DNA of 64,000 nt from a bacterium (GCA_021777995.1 JAJYCW010000001.1:5473-69472); one strand, 5' to 3'. Positions 42,228-50,993 are shown, counted from the stretch's first letter. Notes: a model not told the origin generated them from the sequence alone. Numbers and translations are program-made.

Positions 42228-44336
42228 ATGGAAAATGCTTCCGACGTAGAACCACATTTAGACAGTGGTTCACAGCGCTTGATCAAGTCAGTGGTGCAAA
42301 TGTCGGGGCAGTCCACTCCCGGGCTTTACCACTGGCTGCTTGCTCTACTTTCACAGCACTCAGATCTTACCGAAGCGCTGACACCATATCTTCGGGCGCA
42401 GTCGCTTGCTCTGGAACTTCAAGGAAAACTGGGCCAGGGCAGAACTGGCGCGATTGTCTCCGTAACGGTCATGGAACACCGTGCATATCGCCAGGCGTTA
42501 GCCGAGGGGCGCGCGATGGCCACGGTTCAAGACCTGGCAGCAGCCATTCTAACTTCGGCAGGCTACCAACTACAGGCATTGCCTCAGAATGAATCAGTTG
42601 ACGCTGTAAGCACATCGGGCATTGAAACACTGAAGCGCTTGGGGCGGTGCCTTTCACTTGAGGCGCATGAACAACGCCTAACCCCCATAGTTGGCCGTGC
42701 GGATGAACTGCAGCTAGCATTAGAAACACTATGTCGGCAGACCAAACGAAACCCCGTTTTCATCGGTCCTGCAGGATGTGGCAAGACTGCAATAGTAGAG
42801 GGACTGGCGCAGAGAATCGCGTCGGGTGCCTGCCCTGCTGCGCTAAGGTCCGCGCAGGTGTGGTCAATTGATCCAACAGCCATTATGGCTGTAGCTCATC
42901 ATCAATCTGATTTTCATAAACTCGTTCAACAGCTAATTACTGAAGCCAGCCGGCCGGATATCATTCTGTTCATTGATGAGGTCCACCAGCTTATCGGTAT
43001 GGGTGGCGCGGCCGGGCAGTCCGATCTTTCCAGCCTCTTAAAGCCCGCTCTTGCTAGAGGTGATCTGGCCTGCATCGCTGCCACAACCGACGAGGAGTAC
43101 CGAAAGTTCATAGAGCCAGATGCTGCGCTGGAACGCAGGTTTCAGCCCATTCGCGTTCAAGCTCTAACTGCAGCCCAGACTTTACCCGTACTTGTAGAGC
43201 GATGCGCCTTGATTTGTAGAGGTACCGCCACGCGAGTGTCTCCTCAGGTAATCCAGCATTTGCTCGATCTTGCTGACCATCATATGCGAAATCGCCAATT
43301 TCCAGATAAGGCAATTGATTTATTAGAGCAGAGCATCGCTCATGTACTCGCTCTTAACCGCAGCGAGGTTACCGACCGAGATGTAGTGGAGGTTTTGCAG
43401 AGGATGGTGGGTATGCCGCTGGGCCTTGATGCCGGCCTCGACAGCCTTCGGTTAACTCTGCAATCAGAAAACATTCTGACGCACGAAGCTATTGTAAGCT
43501 TGATGCACCGCCTGAAGATTAGCCTTAGCGGGCTCGACATGCGCCCAGAACGTCCAAATGCCACGTTATTGTTAACAGGTGATTGTGCACACCGTGCTTC
43601 GCGCGTCGCGGAGATCATTGCGGAGAATCTTTTCGGTGCCGCGGACCGTGTAGTAACGTTAGATTTCGGGCGCATGGTGGAACCTCAGGACGTTACACTC
43701 TTACTGGGCGCACCACCCGGCTACGTTGGTTACAGTGAAGCACTCACCATACACCGGTTGTCTCAGATGCCCTGGTGCGTTCTTTACTGCCAAAATATTG
43801 ACATGTGCCACTACACAGTCCGCGATGTGCTGTTGCGCGGCATTAAATCGGGCTTTCTTACTGATGCACGGGGCAAAAAGCTCTATCTTAGCGACACAGT
43901 GTTGCTATTAACCGCGGAGTCAATAGGAGCAGAACCGCAATCCATTGGACTTCTAGGTAACGCTGCGCACAAGGAGAAAATTGCGCCAAGGCAGTTATTG
44001 GCCAGTGTCCTTGGGGATGATTTCGCCGCTCAAATGGACGATGTGTTTTACCAGGTACCTTCAGCGGAAGTAGAAACGAACACTGGAGCAATAGAGCGTA
44101 TGCTTCAAAATGTATCCCTACGCTGCACCATGCATGGAATTACTCTATCCTGGGATCACTCGTTCATCGCCTGGATCTTAGAAAAGCAACGGGTTGCGGC
44201 GCAACAGCGCGACTGGGAGCGGGTTGTAGAGGAGTCGCTCGCCGAAATCCTCAGTCCATACATTGATGGACAGGATGATTGCTGCATCACGATTACATGC
44301 CGGGATGGCGAACCAATCGCTACCCGGCAGTCGTAA
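42228..44336 (+). CDS. ClpA/ClpB/ClpC-like AAA+ protein with intact D1 and degenerate D2
   Basis: Clp_N-like N-terminus. D1 has Walker A GPAGCGKT, Walker B ILFIDEVH and [13 protein letters not shown]2 aligns with Clp D2 (GAPPGYVGY is retained), but Walker A is TGDCAHRAS and Walker B is [10 protein letters not shown]. Confidence 0.85.
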
Positions 44337-44362: not shown

Positions 44363-45838
44363 CTAACCTACCCCCCTCATAAACCTTGATACCTCTTTCT
44401 CGTAGGTATGAAATGGATTTTTGAGGTCAAGTTGCCGATTACGCTCAATATATACCGCATCCCAGTCGATGACGTAGCGCGTAGTCGGACTATTGATGAG
44501 CTGGGAAATGATCTGACCGCGCCCCAGTGCCCTGGTGTTACACGGTGGCATACTCAGTGCCTCTTCAATTTCTCGGTCAGTCGTTAGCCTGCCGAGTGCG
44601 CCACTATTTTCCAGACCATAGCTCAGGCCCTGTGCTGGATGAATGTTGTGATACTCAAGATCAAGGCTCTGCATAACGTCATCGTTCCACTGTGTGCCGG
44701 TTTCTGCCATATACTGTTGGTACAGTACGTACTTGGCCGACCAGTCTAACTTGTCGCTCGTAGAGAGCGGGTCGCGTTCCAGGTCATCCAGAATGCGTTC
44801 CCACTGAAGGAGGACGTTGTCCGTTTGGGCATCCTTGCGATGTAGGTATTTTTTGGCCGCATCAAGATACCGACGTTGAAGGTCGACTGCTCTAATAGTT
44901 TTGCCGCTCTTCAATTTCACAATCCATTTAAACGAGTTATCGCGAGAAACAGCTCTCAAAACGTTAAGTGGTTCATCCAGTTCAACGTCTGGTGGTGCAC
45001 ACCCCTCCTCAATGAGATCCAAAACAAGGCTGGTAGTGCCCACCTTCAAAAGCGTGGCATATTCACTCATGTTACTTTCGCCAAATAGCACATGCAATCG
45101 ATGCAGGTTAGTATACGAATAATACGAGTCCCATTTAGGATTGATAATTGCACGGTTAAACCTAACCCTAGAGCTCACCGTCTTTACAATATGATCTGCT
45201 CGCTGGGAGAGTTGGAAATCTACGGATTGGTCAATCTCCACCCCGTAAAAGTTAGAGACCCACACATAGTCCACTTCATGATCGCCCATCGTCATGATGT
45301 TGTTTTTGCTATTTGGCCGCACCAGCTTGTGACCGCCAACACGGCCGATACCGGCAAAAATCTGACGGGTTACAAGAAACGGCAGTAGATCGGTGATTGC
45401 CTCAGAAAATAGCCGATCCTCAATTTGAACAAGGTAGTTTTCATGACATCCAAACGTATGGCCGCCAAAATGGTCGATGCTGTTATTATGGAAACTAACC
45501 GCTTCGGTAAGCCCAAGGTCCTCAATAAGGCGCGACAGCATGATGCGCCCGGCTCTATCATGTTTGACGAGATCAATAAGGTCGGTACATTCCGCTGTCG
45601 CGTATTCCTCGTGGCTGCCAACAGCATCTACATACAATCTGCCGCCGTTACGCAGAAATCCGCCGGCTCGGGCTGGCTCAAATGCATAATCACGCGCGTG
45701 CAGATCAATGACGCCTAGCTTTTTGGTATAGAAGGCCTCATCCTTTACAAGCTCGACAACTTCCTCTGGTGAGCCCACGGAAGGATCTCTTACCATACAT
45801 CCGAACTCTGTTTCAATGCCGAAAATGCGTTTATCCAT
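44363..45838 (-). CDS. pafA: PafA-like Pup/UBact ligase (carboxylate-amine ligase fold)
   Basis: N-terminus MDKRIFGIETEFG (PafA-like ETEFG). 491 aa. A paralogue of the gene at 47694..49205. Last gene of the proteasome locus, the same position pafA holds relative to prcBA in actinobacteria. Confidence 0.8.
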   Translation of the reverse strand: MDKRIFGIETEFGCMVRDPSVGSPEEVVELVKDEAFYTKKLGVIDLHARDYAFEPARAGGFLRNGGRLYVDAVGSHEEYATAECTDLIDLVKHDRAGRIMLSRLIEDLGLTEAVSFHNNSIDHFGGHTFGCHENYLVQIEDRLFSEAITDLLPFLVTRQIFAGIGRVGGHKLVRPNSKNNIMTMGDHEVDYVWVSNFYGVEIDQSVDFQLSQRADHIVKTVSSRVRFNRAIINPKWDSYYSYTNLHRLHVLFGESNMSEYATLLKVGTTSLVLDLIEEGCAPPDVELDEPLNVLRAVSRDNSFKWIVKLKSGKTIRAVDLQRRYLDAAKKYLHRKDAQTDNVLLQWERILDDLERDPLSTSDKLDWSAKYVLYQQYMAETGTQWNDDVMQSLDLEYHNIHPAQGLSYGLENSGALGRLTTDREIEEALSMPPCNTRALGRGQIISQLINSPTTRYVIDWDAVYIERNRQLDLKNPFHTYEKEVSRFMRGVG

Positions 45839-45862: not shown

Positions 45863-46660
45863 TTAATAGAGGTCCGAAATAACTGATCCTAACACGTCAC
45901 CAGCAAGCAGATGAAAGCGTGCATCCTGTTTATCGCGGCGCTGCAGAAACCCTACCTCCAGCACACCGGACTTCAGTTCCTCTTGCAAGAACACCCGGTC
46001 TGCATCCGCCTCGTCCACCACTTTCAGAGGTGTATCCTGATCCCGCTCGTCCTCATTGGGAGCGCTAATCTGATCTCTGGCGCCAGCAACCCACGCCCTT
46101 AGCGCTCGACGAATTGCCTCATCACGTGACAGGGTTGAATCGGGCTCGCCTAGCACCTGCAACATTCTATCCTCGGCACTCTGCGTACCACCAATGGCGG
46201 CTATGCCAGTGTGCTGCCTGTACTCTCCATCGTAGTTCAATGTAAAAAAGCAATCGCCAGCCACCGTGCGACCCAGTTCTGCAAAAAGCCCCCGAATTAC
46301 CACGGGCACATACATTTGATCGCCGAAGGCCTTCTTAAGTGCAGGGCTAAGTGCAAATCCTACCAGTCGGTGGAGCGAGACGTCATCAGGACTGCGTTCA
46401 AATCCTTCCTGGTGAGCGGTTTGGATGGCGGAAAGGCGCACGTTTTCAATGTCGGACTGCCTTCCAATCGCGCTAAACATCTGGCGGTCGTAAATCTCAT
46501 AAACTTTGCGCTGCGTACGCCGTACGGTTACGAGTAGCAGGCCCTCTTCACAGCAAATACCTACTACAGGGCTACCGGACCGCAGGCCGGCTTCCACATA
46601 GTCCTTGCGATGCCCAATCGCCTCATTAATGTCAAATGGCGTATGCATATGTAGTTGCAA
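45863..46660 (-). CDS. prcA: 20S proteasome alpha subunit
   Basis: Ntn-hydrolase-fold protein without an N-terminal catalytic Thr (GSPVVGICCEEGLLLV...YEIYDR). Lies directly downstream of the beta subunit. Confidence 0.88.
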   Translation of the reverse strand: MQLHMHTPFDINEAIGHRKDYVEAGLRSGSPVVGICCEEGLLLVTVRRTQRKVYEIYDRQMFSAIGRQSDIENVRLSAIQTAHQEGFERSPDDVSLHRLVGFALSPALKKAFGDQMYVPVVIRGLFAELGRTVAGDCFFTLNYDGEYRQHTGIAAIGGTQSAEDRMLQVLGEPDSTLSRDEAIRRALRAWVAGARDQISAPNEDERDQDTPLKVVDEADADRVFLQEELKSGVLEVGFLQRRDKQDARFHLLAGDVLGSVISDLY

Positions 46661-46684: not shown

Positions 46685-47485
46685 TCACCGTGAAATCGAC
46701 TTGTCCAGCTGCTCGATAATAGCTTTCAAAGTTTCATCGGGCACCTCTTCAATTCCGTTGCAGGTGATGGTTCTAGCAAGCGGCATCACCTTTGCCCAAC
46801 CACCAGTAGCGGCATCCAGATCAGCGGCGATGTCGAGCAGTAACAGCGCCTGTTTTAGGGCTTCGTCCCGTGACATTTCATGAAAGGGCTTAACTGTTTT
46901 AACGATGTAGTCAAAAACACCGCGAATCTGCATCGAACCACTGCCGGCTGCACCGAACTCAGTGGATTCGAAGCGTGCACCCATTCCATCATAGAAGAAT
47001 ATACGGCCTTCGTTACTCTCTTTATCGAAGGTAGCTAATATGGGAATAAAGCCACCGATGCCCTGAAGCGCGTCGGGAATACCGGCTTTTACTACCCTGG
47101 CGAGTTCGGTAAGCTTTCCTTCAAGGCTCATGGGCTGTAGGTAGGTTCGCTCAAAGAGTTTAAATGATGTGCGCAGGTATTTCACAACATCCATTGCACG
47201 GGCAAATGAGCCGCTTATTGCCAGCAGTGTGGTATCGTCAATAGCTAGCACCTTGTCGGCACGGTCGTACATCACTGCGAAGTTAGCAGTCGCGCGGCGG
47301 TCGCCTACGGCAATGACGCCGTCCTTAAACTTTACTGCGATTACAGTTGTGCCATGCGTCTCAATCGATCCTGCACCTGCGTGTGAATCCGCGGGACGTA
47401 AGCTGCCCGCTTCCCTGGTGAACGGATGCCCGCTCTGTTCCAGTAACTTCCAAAGACTACCAGCAGTATCTGTGGTTGATAGCAT
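46685..47485 (-). CDS. prcB: 20S proteasome beta subunit with propeptide
   Basis: A 45-aa propeptide ending ...IETHG, followed by TTVIAVKFKDGV (catalytic Thr46 after Gly45). Typical beta-subunit core (GDRR, GSG). Confidence 0.9.
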   Translation of the reverse strand: MLSTTDTAGSLWKLLEQSGHPFTREAGSLRPADSHAGAGSIETHGTTVIAVKFKDGVIAVGDRRATANFAVMYDRADKVLAIDDTTLLAISGSFARAMDVVKYLRTSFKLFERTYLQPMSLEGKLTELARVVKAGIPDALQGIGGFIPILATFDKESNEGRIFFYDGMGARFESTEFGAAGSGSMQIRGVFDYIVKTVKPFHEMSRDEALKQALLLLDIAADLDAATGGWAKVMPLARTITCNGIEEVPDETLKAIIEQLDKSISR

Positions 47486-47487
47486 GT

Positions 47488-47676
47488 TTACTGTCCACTT
47501 CGTTGTCGATACCGACGAGCAGCGTCAGGATCAACGCGTCGCATGCGCTTTAGAAGGTCACTGGTGTCAGGCCGTTTCACATCTGGCTCAGATGGTCCAC
47601 CACCATCTCCATCTTTGCGCACCGGGCTTATGGGCGCCACCGGCGCCTGTTTTCGTTCTTCGCCATTTATTATCAT
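47488..47676 (-). CDS. Pup-like (UBact-type) small protein modifier, 62 aa
   Basis: Sits between the dop-like gene and prcB, exactly where pup lies. GGGAGAGAG Shine-Dalgarno. Gly/Pro-rich N-terminal half. C-terminus DLLKRMRRVDPDAARRYRQRSGQ, compared with mycobacterial Pup as I recall it: DDLLDEID...AYVQKGGQ. Confidence 0.8.
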   Translation of the reverse strand: MIINGEERKQAPVAPISPVRKDGDGGGPSEPDVKRPDTSDLLKRMRRVDPDAARRYRQRSGQ

Positions 47677-47693
47677 TGCTCTCTCCCGTTCTG

Positions 47694-49205
47694 TCAGTTC
47701 TGCTGACCATTGCGCCGTATCAAATTCACTACCTCATCAAGAGTTTGGGCAGACGCAAACTCTTCGTTAAGGATCCTCGCGTTCTCTTCCACCAGAGGAT
47801 TCATGTCGAACAGCAGATCCTCGCCATTGTGGTGGAACACAATACCGTTCCACCCGGTTCGTTTAACGGCATGACCAAACCGTTTAATTATCAGCCCTCG
47901 AAGGTAAGCTCGCGTATCAGCAGGTGCGCAGCTCACAGCGGCGTCCACTCTGCTCTCGGTTACTAGCCGGCGCATTGCCCCAGCTTCCTCAAGACCGTAA
48001 TAAAGCCCCTCGCTGCGATCGATATTGTGATAAGCCAGGTCAAGACTCTGAATATGACTGTCATTCCATGGTAAGCCCTCTTCTTGACGAAACTCATCTA
48101 GAAGAAGATACTTGGCGACCCAGTCCAAACGATCTGCTAATTTGGTAAAGTCCGTTTCCAACAAGTCAAGAGCCGTTCTCCATTCATGAAGTACCCAATC
48201 CGTTTCAGCATCTGCGCCCGCATAGCGATGTTCTGCAGCAACAAGATATGCGCGCTGAATATCTATTGCCCTTAGAGATGTACCACCATCCTGTTCGTAT
48301 GCGAGCTTAAACGAGAGATCACGGCTAATATTGCGCGATGCGCGAACTGGGTCACGCAACCTTACCGGCGATGTCCAACCGTCCTCTAATAGACGGAGAA
48401 CGAGTACTGTAGCACCAACCTTTAGAGCGGTTGCAACCTCGCTCATGTTCGCGTCACCGCAAATAACGTGCAGCCGGCGATACTTGCTTGGAGTGGCATG
48501 AGGCTCATCACGAGTGTTTACCAACGGCCGGTTATGCAGCGTGTCCACACTAGCCTCTACAGCCATAAAGTCCGCGCGCTGGGATAGTTGAAATCGATCA
48601 GCATCTGGTCCAGAAACGTTCTCCACTCCAGCTTTACCTGCACCAGCGTAAACACACCGAGAGGCAAAGAATGGAAGTAGCGTGCCTATCAGTGCAGTGG
48701 TATCTACGTGCCGCTGCATGAGATAGCCCTCATGGGTGCCGTAGCTGGATCCATGGAAATCCGTATTATTCTTATAAATTGTTACCGCCCGGCCAATTGC
48801 TGCGGACCTCCGCTTAGCCGCATCCAGTACCACACGCTCGCCTGCTCGGTCGTGGGCAACGAGATCAAAAAGATTTCGACATTCAGGCGTAGCATATTCA
48901 GGATGGCCGTGATCGTTATAAAAGCGGGCTCCGTTCACTAGAATGCGATCACTTCGTTCCTCTTCGTGAGACATCGTGTGGTGAGAACCGGTATCAAATA
49001 CGGCGTCGTCAGGGTTTGTATTGAGGGACTTGACTGTAAAGCCTCGCATATCGCGGCGAGCATCTTCACCGCGATAGTTCCACCCTTTTACCGCTTCGCC
49101 TGCATGGCCCCGCACCACTGCCATCGACTCGCTAACCCAGTCTACAGCGGAAAGGCCATCGACAACAATACCGTATTCGGTTTCGATTCCAAATAGTCTA
49201 TCCAT
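47694..49205 (-). CDS. dop: Dop-like deamidase/depupylase
   Basis: N-terminus MDRLFGIETEYGI (Dop-like E.EYGI). 503 aa. Located between the AAA ATPase gene and the modifier gene, as in actinobacterial loci. Confidence 0.8.
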   Translation of the reverse strand: MDRLFGIETEYGIVVDGLSAVDWVSESMAVVRGHAGEAVKGWNYRGEDARRDMRGFTVKSLNTNPDDAVFDTGSHHTMSHEEERSDRILVNGARFYNDHGHPEYATPECRNLFDLVAHDRAGERVVLDAAKRRSAAIGRAVTIYKNNTDFHGSSYGTHEGYLMQRHVDTTALIGTLLPFFASRCVYAGAGKAGVENVSGPDADRFQLSQRADFMAVEASVDTLHNRPLVNTRDEPHATPSKYRRLHVICGDANMSEVATALKVGATVLVLRLLEDGWTSPVRLRDPVRASRNISRDLSFKLAYEQDGGTSLRAIDIQRAYLVAAEHRYAGADAETDWVLHEWRTALDLLETDFTKLADRLDWVAKYLLLDEFRQEEGLPWNDSHIQSLDLAYHNIDRSEGLYYGLEEAGAMRRLVTESRVDAAVSCAPADTRAYLRGLIIKRFGHAVKRTGWNGIVFHHNGEDLLFDMNPLVEENARILNEEFASAQTLDEVVNLIRRNGQQN

Positions 49206-49211
49206 AGTGGC

Positions 49212-50993
49212 CTAAATGATGTTTCTCGACGTCTCACTCACTGCACGGCGCGCTTTAACAGGTTTCACAGTCGCAACATTGTCTGGCTCATAATCAAGAA
49301 GTTTCAACCAATCCTCCTGAGAATCACCCTTCGGGAAGATCTCGTTTTCCTTATACTCAACTCGAACGGCAGTCTGTAGGTCCTCAATGCTGATTCCCTC
49401 TTCATCGGACTTCAGTTCAATCGACCTTTTGATGGCGAAATCCTTTGCGCGTTCCACCACAGATTTGATGAGAGCACCACTAATTAGGTCTTTCCAGTAG
49501 AGTTTTTCCGTGCCACCGCTACGCATAAACACCTCTAGAAACTCGGTCTCTTGAACCCTGCGGTATGTGAACTCGGTGATGGCATCTAACATTTCATCCA
49601 TTACCGAAGTACAGTCGCCCCGATGCTTCTTGATGAGGTTGTGGTCAATAGGTACATCACTAAGGTATATCTTGAAAATATCACGCGTCGCACGTCGATC
49701 TGGGCGCACTACCTTCACTTTGCGATCGATACGCTCGGGACGTAAAATTGCCGGGTCAATATAATCGGGCCGGTTGGACGTAAGCATGACGACCACATTG
49801 TCGAGCGAGACCAACCCATCCATTTCTGCACAGAATTGAGGAACTAAAGTGTTAGAGATGTTAAGATATCTCCCACTACTTCGCGTCCTTAACAGCGACT
49901 CCGCCTCATCAATGAAGATAAACACCAACCGCCCTTCGCGTGCTTTTTCACGTGCCTGATTAAATATGTCCCGCACCTGGCGCTCGGACTCACCAAGCCA
50001 CATATTGAGAATCTTTGGTCCATTGATATACATGAAATATTCTGTGACGTCTTTGCCGGTGCGTTCGCGATATTCCTGCGTAAGGTTATACGCGGTTGCT
50101 TTACCAATCAGCGTCTTGCCACAACCAGGAGGTCCAAACAAAAGGATCCCCTTTAACGGCCTTTTTCCGAAACGCGCGAAGAGTTCGGGGTGAAGCAGCG
50201 GCAGCTCAATAGCGTCGCGTATAACAGAGATAGCCTCGTCTTGCCCTCCGATCTTACTCCAAGGGAGAACGGGTACCTCTTCAAGATAATAATCCGACGC
50301 TTCCTTAGCGGGAAAATACTCCAAGGCTACCTTGAAGTTTGGTTCCATACGCACTTCGGATCCAACCTTCAGTAATTGTGCCTTTATCGCCTCGCCGCGA
50401 TAGACTACTCTAGACTGAGTGCCTTGGGAGTCGAGCGCCACCCGCAACCTACCATCCTCGAGCACCTCAACAATCTTGACTATAGGTCCACCTTCTGCAA
50501 AACCGAGGTCACCAATCACGGCGAATGCTTCGTTAACCTTTACCTGAGTACCCGCCTGCAGTTCCACGTTTTCCATCCGGGGATCAACGTTAGCAATATA
50601 TTCCTGTTCCCCAAGGGCGATACGCACGGTCTGTGGCTTCTCCTCAGGTTCGGCCAGCAGCGACGACCGCCGGCGCGTTTTAGGTTTGGGAGGATCGGCT
50701 TTTCCTAAATAAACCGCAATCTTGTTAGCTGGCGCTGTGAGTTTGTTGTACGCGTCCTCAAACTCCGCGATCACTTTACGCGCCTCATCCATCATGGCTT
50801 CGTCAGTTTCGATCTGTTCGCGCAGGGTCAGCAGATAGCCCAAACGGGCGTCATTGCGCGGGGTCATCCGTATGACTTCGTCTAAAATCCAGAGAGCCCG
50901 AAGCTGCAACTCTGGTTGACTTTCGGACTGCGATGCATTTAGTTCGCCAGCATCATCATCGTTGGAAGAGCGGGTGTCTCTGTCTCGTTTCAT
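49212..50993 (-). CDS. proteasome-associated AAA+ ATPase (ARC/Mpa-like)
   Basis: Acidic predicted coiled coil near the N-terminus. An OB-like middle region (RIALGEQEYIANV..., VKIVEVLEDGRLRV). Walker A GPPGCGKT and Walker B FIFIDEAE. First gene of the locus. Confidence 0.9.
   Translation of the reverse strand: MKRDRDTRSSNDDDAGELNASQSESQPELQLRALWILDEVIRMTPRNDARLGYLLTLREQIETDEAMMDEARKVIAEFEDAYNKLTAPANKIAVYLGKADPPKPKTRRRSSLLAEPEEKPQTVRIALGEQEYIANVDPRMENVELQAGTQVKVNEAFAVIGDLGFAEGGPIVKIVEVLEDGRLRVALDSQGTQSRVVYRGEAIKAQLLKVGSEVRMEPNFKVALEYFPAKEASDYYLEEVPVLPWSKIGGQDEAISVIRDAIELPLLHPELFARFGKRPLKGILLFGPPGCGKTLIGKATAYNLTQEYRERTGKDVTEYFMYINGPKILNMWLGESERQVRDIFNQAREKAREGRLVFIFIDEAESLLRTRSSGRYLNISNTLVPQFCAEMDGLVSLDNVVVMLTSNRPDYIDPAILRPERIDRKVKVVRPDRRATRDIFKIYLSDVPIDHNLIKKHRGDCTSVMDEMLDAITEFTYRRVQETEFLEVFMRSGGTEKLYWKDLISGALIKSVVERAKDFAIKRSIELKSDEEGISIEDLQTAVRVEYKENEIFPKGDSQEDWLKLLDYEPDNVATVKPVKARRAVSETSRNII

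Follow-up and report, generated by a model that had tools for sequence, protein, structure and literature searches.

The window analysed here comprises 64,000 nucleotides of bacterial DNA (GCA_021777995.1, JAJYCW010000001.1:5473-69472). Between positions 44363 and 50993, on the (-) strand, lies an operon of six genes separated by gaps of 2-24 nt. In order, these encode an Mpa-like ATPase, a Dop-type enzyme, a small protein, the proteasome beta subunit, the proteasome alpha subunit and a PafA-type enzyme. The gene for the small protein, of 62 residues, occupies 47488..47676 (-). It begins with ATG, immediately 5' of which is a Shine-Dalgarno-like stretch (GGGAGAGAG), and its stop codon is at 47488-47490. 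The translation, MIINGEERKQAPVAPISPVRKDGDGGGPSEPDVKRPDTSDLLKRMRRVDPDAARRYRQRSGQ, ends RRYRQRSGQ directly before the stop, the terminal Gln codon being 47491-47493. A preliminary description of this DNA had placed a Pup-like modifier here, beside a Dop-like enzyme and an ATPase. The open reading frame, its sequence and its C-terminal landmarks read as described there, and the PafA-type enzyme and 20S proteasome genes are also present.

The first gene of the operon (49212..50993 (-)) encodes a proteasomal AAA ATPase of the Mpa/ARC type, 593 residues long, assigned with TIGR03689 and with the Pfam domains Prot_ATP_ID_OB_N, Prot_ATP_ID_OB_C and AAA, all of which were found. It is followed by the homologue of Dop-type deamidase/depupylase enzymes (503 residues; 47694..49205 (-)). 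Proteasome beta (266 residues; 46685..47485 (-); TIGR03690 146 bits, PF00227 99 bits) has a propeptide and the GTT catalytic-Thr motif, present as HGTTVIAV at residues 43-50. The alpha subunit (265 residues; 45863..46660 (-)) starts with TTG and is divergent. It scores 67 bits with TIGR03691 and 22.4 bits with PF00227, exactly the gathering threshold, and its position is kept in about 60 loci. The alpha orthologue at locus L094 is without a precomputed Pfam match. The last gene (44363..45838 (-)) encodes the PafA-type ligase homologue, of 491 residues (PF03136 441 bits). The order ATPase-Dop-UBact-PrcB-PrcA-PafA, in which UBact is the small protein, is kept in dozens of loci. At L094 and L095, 92%-identical relatives from MAG assemblies, the entire neighbourhood matches gene for gene. 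Convergent with the PafA-type gene is a 702-residue, two-module Clp-like AAA+ protein (42228-44336 (+)), whose position is also kept at L094 and L095. In NCBIfam it comes closest to ClpV, ClpB and ClpA, in each case far under the cut-off of the model.

Both curated UBact models were matched full-length by the window ORF, with E = 1e-23. NCBIfam NF033388 ('ubiquitin-like protein UBact') gave 83.4 bits against a cut-off of 35, covering model positions 2-54 of 54. Pfam PF20513 (UBact) gave 82.2 bits against a gathering score of 27.8, covering positions 1-43 of 43. Judged by its sequence, the 62-residue protein is a typical member of UBact, a Pup-like tag family of Gram-negative bacteria. The name (ubiquitin bacterial) is that of Lehmann, Udasin, Livneh and Ciechanover (2017, BBRC 483:946), as cited in PMC5751360. 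Before that, Iyer et al. (2008; PMC2588565) had listed, from verrucomicrobia, nitrospirae and planctomycetes, proteins resembling Pup that end in G[EQ] and are predicted to have a bihelical core.

A homologue search returned 223 close homologues of the window UBact, those with names coming from Chthonomonadales and other Armatimonadota. When one genome per species was scanned, UBact relatives were encoded in at least 581 species genomes; among the matches listed, the best came from Chthonomonadales/Armatimonadota and Verrucomicrobiota. Identical UBact and ATPase sequences are already present in public assemblies. Compared with L094 over 63 codons, the UBact gene has 25 identical codons, 33 synonymous differences and 5 non-synonymous differences. 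This codon comparison shows that the ORF is a genuine gene and that purifying selection on it is strong.

The preliminary description had stressed that the protein ends in Ser-Gly-Gln where Pup has Gly-Gly-Gln/Glu, and that its C-terminal part is basic. Both features are present, and both are traits of the family. The C-terminus is SG[EQ] in 120/120 nearest homologues (80 E and 40 Q), and the idea that SGQ is an oddity of this locus was rejected on that count. Among 141 diverse UBact representatives, taken at 50% identity, RTGQ is the ending of 60, RTGE of 21, RSGE of 14 and RSGQ of 12; a few end in GGQ. The Ser-Gly ending is the flavour of Armatimonadota, Thr-Gly prevailing in other lineages. 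In representatives with canonical endings, the C-terminal 30 residues have a net positive charge, mostly +3 to +8. Since SGQ and the basic helix occur family-wide, they are not peculiar to the window locus. The window protein matches the UBact consensus, PDT.DLLKRM.RVDP...RYRQR[ST]G[EQ], and the implication of an unusual or new variant therefore fell away: R[ST]G[QE] with a basic C-terminal part is the norm of a family that already has Pfam and NCBIfam models. The window protein also shares with the family its conserved Pro/Gly-rich N-terminal half, its occurrence in Armatimonadota and the position of its gene, directly ahead of those for proteasome beta and alpha. We found no difference of substance. 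As an object, the locus is not novel; it is an ordinary member of a curated family, already known as a kind.

Our main reading is that the ORF encodes UBact within a complete, typical operon of a Chthonomonadales-like (Armatimonadota) genome, which, by analogy, would specify a Pup-like tagging pathway; we put its probability at roughly 0.8. Mentions of UBact in the literature searched, which did not include the original 2017 paper, were passing ones, alongside unrelated uses of the same string. No report of experimental UBact conjugation, deamidation or degradation was found there. Hence, every mechanistic step proposed here is modelled on Pup. The Dop-type enzyme would deamidate the C-terminal Gln62 to Glu, as Pup suggests and in line with the preliminary description, ahead of ligation. 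The PafA-type enzyme would then phosphorylate the gamma-carboxylate of this Glu and couple UBact to target proteins at their lysine side chains. For recognition, the tag would engage the helical domain at the N-terminus of the Mpa-like ATPase. The short amphipathic basic helices at UBact residues 39-60 may pack their L41/L42/M45/V48 face onto an acidic helix of the ATPase (residues 54-87), and the disordered Gly/Pro-rich N-terminus of the tag may be threaded into the ATPase pore. The substrate would be unfolded, then degraded by the 20S proteasome. Removal of the tag by the Dop-type enzyme would also be possible.

By homology, the two enzymes are of different types. The 503-residue protein aligns end to end (alignment 1-466) with Acidothermus Dop (4b0r), scoring 355 bits against 228 for PafA, and it scores higher with 5/5 actinobacterial Dops than with PafAs. 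In the 4b0r alignment it keeps the Dop-loop Trp (W42), the catalytic Asp (D98) and the catalytic motifs DHxHPEY, NTRDEPH and RLH, and equivalents of R227 and H241 are present. No Dop-loop was found on alignment of the 491-residue PafA-type protein. Here 5/5 actinobacterial PafAs outscore Dops by a small margin (20-36 bits), and TIGR03686 gives 324 bits against 299 for the Dop model. Of nine alpha-loop positions, three (His, Ser, Ser) are PafA-like, at sites that PMC7947786 gives as PafA-specific, and 0/9 are Dop-like. The scores fall below equivalog cut-offs that were trained on actinobacteria: 442.3 bits against 492.3 for the Dop-type enzyme (TIGR03688), 324 against 551 for the PafA-type enzyme (TIGR03686) and 440 against 504.75 for the ATPase (TIGR03689). 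The catalytic motifs GIETE, D and RLH are retained in both enzymes. One Dop-type and one PafA-type paralogue, with a putative division of labour to match, is well supported by homology.

Three features of the PafA-type proteins may be recorded here. In those of Armatimonadota, residues 233-240 (window 45119-45142 (-)) read NPKWDSYY in place of N[TA]RDEP[HL]A, the motif kept in actinobacterial PafA and Dop, in the window Dop-type enzyme and in more distant UBact-type PafAs. The same proteins have Lys at the position equivalent to CglPafA R207 and AcelDop R227. UBact-type PafAs also have an insertion of ~11 residues (..YTKKLGVIDLHARDYAF..) at residues about 24-55 (window about 45670-45770 (-)), and acidic residues replace the Arg-rich HG-QRRLSPDEVARYLFRR segment of actinobacterial PafAs. 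That segment lies near the 'site 1' arginines beside the Pup groove (PMC10465538).

We compared UBact with the reference Pup of M. tuberculosis, whose sequence was confirmed at every residue against PDB 7px9_G. The charge inversion noted in the preliminary description was borne out: UBact residues 38-59 carry +5 and Pup residues 36-61 carry -8, the whole proteins +4 and -12. In the hhalign alignment, which is weak but agrees with the likeness noted in the preliminary description, UBact 31-61 is paired with Pup 30-64, and the basic unit falls on Pup 38-61, leaving a gap of 4 residues. The aligned blocks are LLKRMRRV/LLDEIDDV and, beyond the gap, RRYRQRSGQ/RAYVQKGGQ. The hydrophobic face of the helical part is retained (LLxxMxxV/LLxxIxxV); on the charged face, the signs are reversed. 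AlphaFold2, run with a 27-sequence alignment, predicted no globular fold (pTM 0.22). Residues 1-38 were without secondary structure, in agreement with the Pro/Gly-rich, presumably disordered N-terminal half proposed before, and short helices were predicted at 39-44 and 50-60. Together with hhalign, this delimits a basic bihelical C-terminal unit at residues 39-60 (DLLKRMRRV-DP-DAARRYRQR; window 47497..47562 (-)), followed by SGQ.

Pup binds the Mpa coiled coil via a helix of ~30 residues, Pup 21-51 (PMC8755798), and in the grooves of PafA and Dop it forms two orthogonal helices (PMC8599861). The two-helix unit of UBact, as modelled, resembles the latter, bihelical form (PMC8599861; PMC2588565). 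Prolines 12, 15, 18, 28, 31 and 36 of UBact are invariant. Because P28, P31 and P36 are conserved, and only two short helices are predicted, UBact would have no Pup-like 30-residue ATPase-binding helix. A helix of this kind would span at most 22 residues, 39-60, kinked at P50. The preliminary description had carried the ATPase-binding helix of Pup over to this segment, and in that form the comparison does not transfer.

The ATPase has the Mpa architecture, namely a helical domain at the N-terminus, a pair of OB domains and a single AAA module. It aligns with M. tuberculosis Mpa (5kwa) over residues 131-581 (E = 1e-96). AlphaFold2 predicted N-terminal helices at 26-43, 51-63 and 68-86 (pLDDT 70-86). 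Residues 54-87 (window 50733..50834 (-)), picked out by this prediction and by charge count, form the acidic helix that is our candidate UBact receptor. They include the acid-rich string REQIETDEAMMDEARKVIAEFEDAY, found at residues 59-83 and pointed out earlier, and stop at an L-T-A-P-A-N hinge ahead of the first OB domain. Mpa/ARC proteins (PDB 3M91/3M9D; PMC8755798) have the same L-x-x-P-(P/A) hinge directly ahead of two OB domains. Compared with these, the pre-hinge helix of the window ATPase is shorter (~34 against ~50 residues), more acidic and preceded by a helix-loop. By analogy, it is plausible that the N-terminal helical domain is the UBact tag receptor. In Chthonomonadales ATPases, a basic Pro-rich insertion (GKADPPKPKTRRRSSLLAEPEEKPQ) follows the coiled-coil hinge and precedes the first OB strand, at residues about 97-122 (window about 50628-50705 (-)). 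It is missing from the other ATPases aligned, namely those of Capsulimonadaceae type, of L013, L011 and L015 and of other Armatimonadota.

The GQYL motif docks Mpa onto the 20S proteasome. Every actinobacterial ATPase sampled (L083-L090) ends GQYL. The window ATPase ends ...SRNII (tail at 49212-49230 (-)), without GQYL, and 50/50 UBact-linked ATPases with a complete C-terminus end [IV][IV], often RRN[IV]I (L002-L067 and L096-L166). Since UBact-linked ATPases are without GQYL, their docking on the 20S proteasome may differ.

The preliminary description had further suggested that a basic modifier and an acid-rich ATPase coil form a charge-swapped interface. As receptor helix we took the residues leading directly up to the L-x-x-P-(P/A) hinge in front of the first OB domain; in M. 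tuberculosis Mpa these close the crystallised coil, 46-96, whose sequence was verified against PDB 3m9b. Over the last 28 coil residues, the net charge of the window ATPase is -5. Armatimonadota UBact loci (n=27) range from -3 to -5, with a mean of -4.4, and more distant metagenome UBact loci (n=14) from 0 to -4, with a mean of -1.9. Pup loci range from -1 to +1; these come from a narrow sample of nearest relatives in five genera of only two orders, Mycobacteriales and Streptomycetaceae (Gordonia, Tsukamurella, Streptomyces, Kitasatospora and M. tuberculosis), loci of M. fortuitum, Nocardia and Smaragdicoccus having been left out with the ATPase cut off or beyond 10 kb. Over unique pairs, mean coil charge is -3.6 for UBact and -0.2 for Pup (Mann-Whitney p = 3e-4, uncorrected and ignoring kinship), and such contrasts rest on few independent lineages. 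The co-variation of modifier and coil charge on which the suggestion had been made to hinge is present. Spearman's rho between modifier-tail and coil charge was -0.55 for 42 unique pairs and -0.39 for 38 UBact pairs alone, both values ignoring kinship. Hence, the direction of the proposal stood, coils being more acidic in UBact loci. Its symmetry did not; Pup-linked coils are about neutral, not basic, so there is no symmetric swap. The coil shift (2-4 charges) is also small next to that of the modifier (about 13-16 charges).

A similar trend was seen in the enzymes, for which charges were counted over whole proteins and conserved columns, again over few independent lineages and ignoring kinship. 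Per 100 residues, PafA carries -3.7 in UBact-type loci and -0.6 in Pup-type loci; the values for Dop are -4.1 and -3.2. The acid shift is thus strong for PafA and slight for Dop, and the controls move the opposite way: PrcB from -4.3 in Pup-type to -1.1 in UBact-type loci, and the whole ATPase from -5.1 to -2.3. Conserved columns changed from neutral to acidic at 10 positions in Dop and 10 in PafA, and from neutral to basic at 3 and 4, respectively; columns with altered charge include PafA positions 33 and 482 and Dop position 396. The charge of PafA may instead reflect substrate recognition and not tag binding (PMC10465538).

Taken together, the charge-complement idea has modest, direction-consistent support, and is plausible but unproven. 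Tentatively, we raise the possibility that the change from an acidic to a basic modifier pulled the ATPase helix, the PafA-type enzyme and, weakly, the Dop-type enzyme towards acidity, along with a shortened, proline-delimited receptor-binding helix and an [IV][IV] tail on the ATPase; we hold this to be doubtful as it stands. If true, it would mean that a protein-tagging pathway was electrostatically re-matched throughout, with non-binding neighbours unshifted. We found no description of a system-wide acid shift of UBact partners in the literature searched, outside which the original UBact paper lay. The acid shift of the binding partners, with the different ATPase tail, is possibly the sole new angle at this locus. 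Basic UBact and acidic Pup make a natural charge-reversal experiment on how a disordered tag is read by ligase, deligase and unfoldase, and the trends in partner charge point to concrete mutants. The window itself holds one more UBact operon, recognisable with standard annotation models. Being compact, with six genes, and from a relative of the cultivable Chthonomonas, it offers a convenient template for reconstitution of a UBact system.

The same data bear on an alternative in which UBact is conjugated, the ATPase reads some other surface (for example the conserved Pro-rich N-terminal motif, or through the OB ring) in place of the three-stranded coil, and coil acidity is lineage noise. The six invariant prolines and two short predicted helices, which leave no Pup-like 30-residue helix, fit this, and for a disordered stretch that serves in threading, conservation in the N-terminal half of UBact is unusually high. 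Coil charges of 0 to -4 in UBact lineages outside Armatimonadota overlap the Pup-linked range. Moreover, the coil to which the highly acidic Pup binds is close to neutral, making net charge a poor predictor of binding. Against this, the last 21 coil residues carry -2 to -4 in 38/38 unique UBact loci and -1 to -2 in Pup loci. The coil is acid-shifted in ATPases that, as a whole, are less acidic than the actinobacterial ones, and the LLxxMxxV pattern of UBact matches LLxxIxxV of Pup. We regard reading through another surface as rather unlikely, and keep the N-terminal coil as the plausible receptor.

UBact might also be a divergent Pup orthologue that belongs in the Pup family and is no distinct kind. 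UBact is of similar size (the Pup type has ~60-70 residues), intrinsically disordered and Gly-rich in its N-terminal part. Its C-terminal bihelical unit has the LLxx[IM]xxV face and a Y/F.Q..G[EQ] end and, like Pup, the family shows both Q and E at the C-terminus. The operon context and position are identical, with partners of the same types (Dop, PafA, Mpa/ARC, PrcB and PrcA), and Iyer et al. (2008; PMC2588565) counted the proteins of verrucomicrobia, nitrospirae and planctomycetes as Pup orthologues. However, Pfam Pup (PF05639) did not match the window protein at E up to 10, and comparison of the UBact and Pup profiles by hhalign gave a probability of 2.9% (E 0.016). Membership of Pfam Pup was rejected on these results, and homology of UBact and Pup is not statistically demonstrable by sequence. 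The charge is reversed, Ser/Thr-Gly replaces Gly-Gly before the terminal residue and the inter-helix spacing is 4 residues shorter. Prolines sit where Pup builds the first half of its Mpa-binding helix. The partners differ too: the ATPase ends [IV][IV] and that of Pup GQYL, and the PafA partner of UBact is far more acidic. Each family has its own curated models. We therefore consider orthology in this sense improbable; where UBact is filed relative to Pup is mostly a question of naming.

Very improbable, in our view, is that the small protein serves the ATPase or proteasome as a regulator or adaptor without being conjugated, with the Dop-type and PafA-type enzymes acting on other substrates. 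This would sit easily with the missing reports of conjugation in the literature searched, with Verrucomicrobiota in which UBact stands with PrcB and PrcA only, no ligase or ATPase being found within 10 kb, and with the altered active-site-rim motif, otherwise conserved, of the window PafA-type enzyme. It is opposed by the family-wide invariance of the G[EQ] C-terminus, by the alternation of E and Q, which fits only gamma-carboxylate chemistry, by the retained GIETE, D and RLH motifs of both enzymes and by tight operon linkage in Armatimonadota and other lineages. Lastly, that a frame of only 62 residues, overlapped by a long antisense ORF, opened by chance between the Dop-type and PrcB genes is hardly conceivable and was rejected, because the conservation pattern rules it out: the curated UBact models match at E = 1e-23, synonymous differences from L094 outnumber non-synonymous ones by 33 to 5 and hundreds of homologues hold the same operon position. 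The tag gene of a complete UBact operon remains our preferred reading.

The antisense frame, of 265 residues (window 47169-47966 (+)), spans the PrcB start, the whole of UBact and the 3' end of the Dop-type gene. Its translation looks unlike that of a real protein, and it is taken to be a by-product of the opposite coding strand. The best sigma-70-like match of the operon (window 47669-47697 (-); CTGACA-17-GATAAT, 10/12; ATGATAAT) overlaps the UBact start codon. It is probably a chance match, because the operon has 9 promoter-like sites where shuffles lead one to expect 7.4, which is no enrichment.

The Verrucomicrobiota loci are chiefly from Chthoniobacterales, Udaeobacter and Verrucomicrobiae (L027, L033, L037, L040-L041, L044-L052, L054-L056, L058-L061, L063, L068-L072, L074-L076, L078 and L080). 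In these, UBact is followed by PrcB and usually by PrcA, with no gene for an ATPase, Dop-type or PafA-type protein within 10 kb on either side. UBact representatives with Thr-Gly mostly end in Gln, and the Verrucomicrobiota loci appear to be of the Thr-Gly type.
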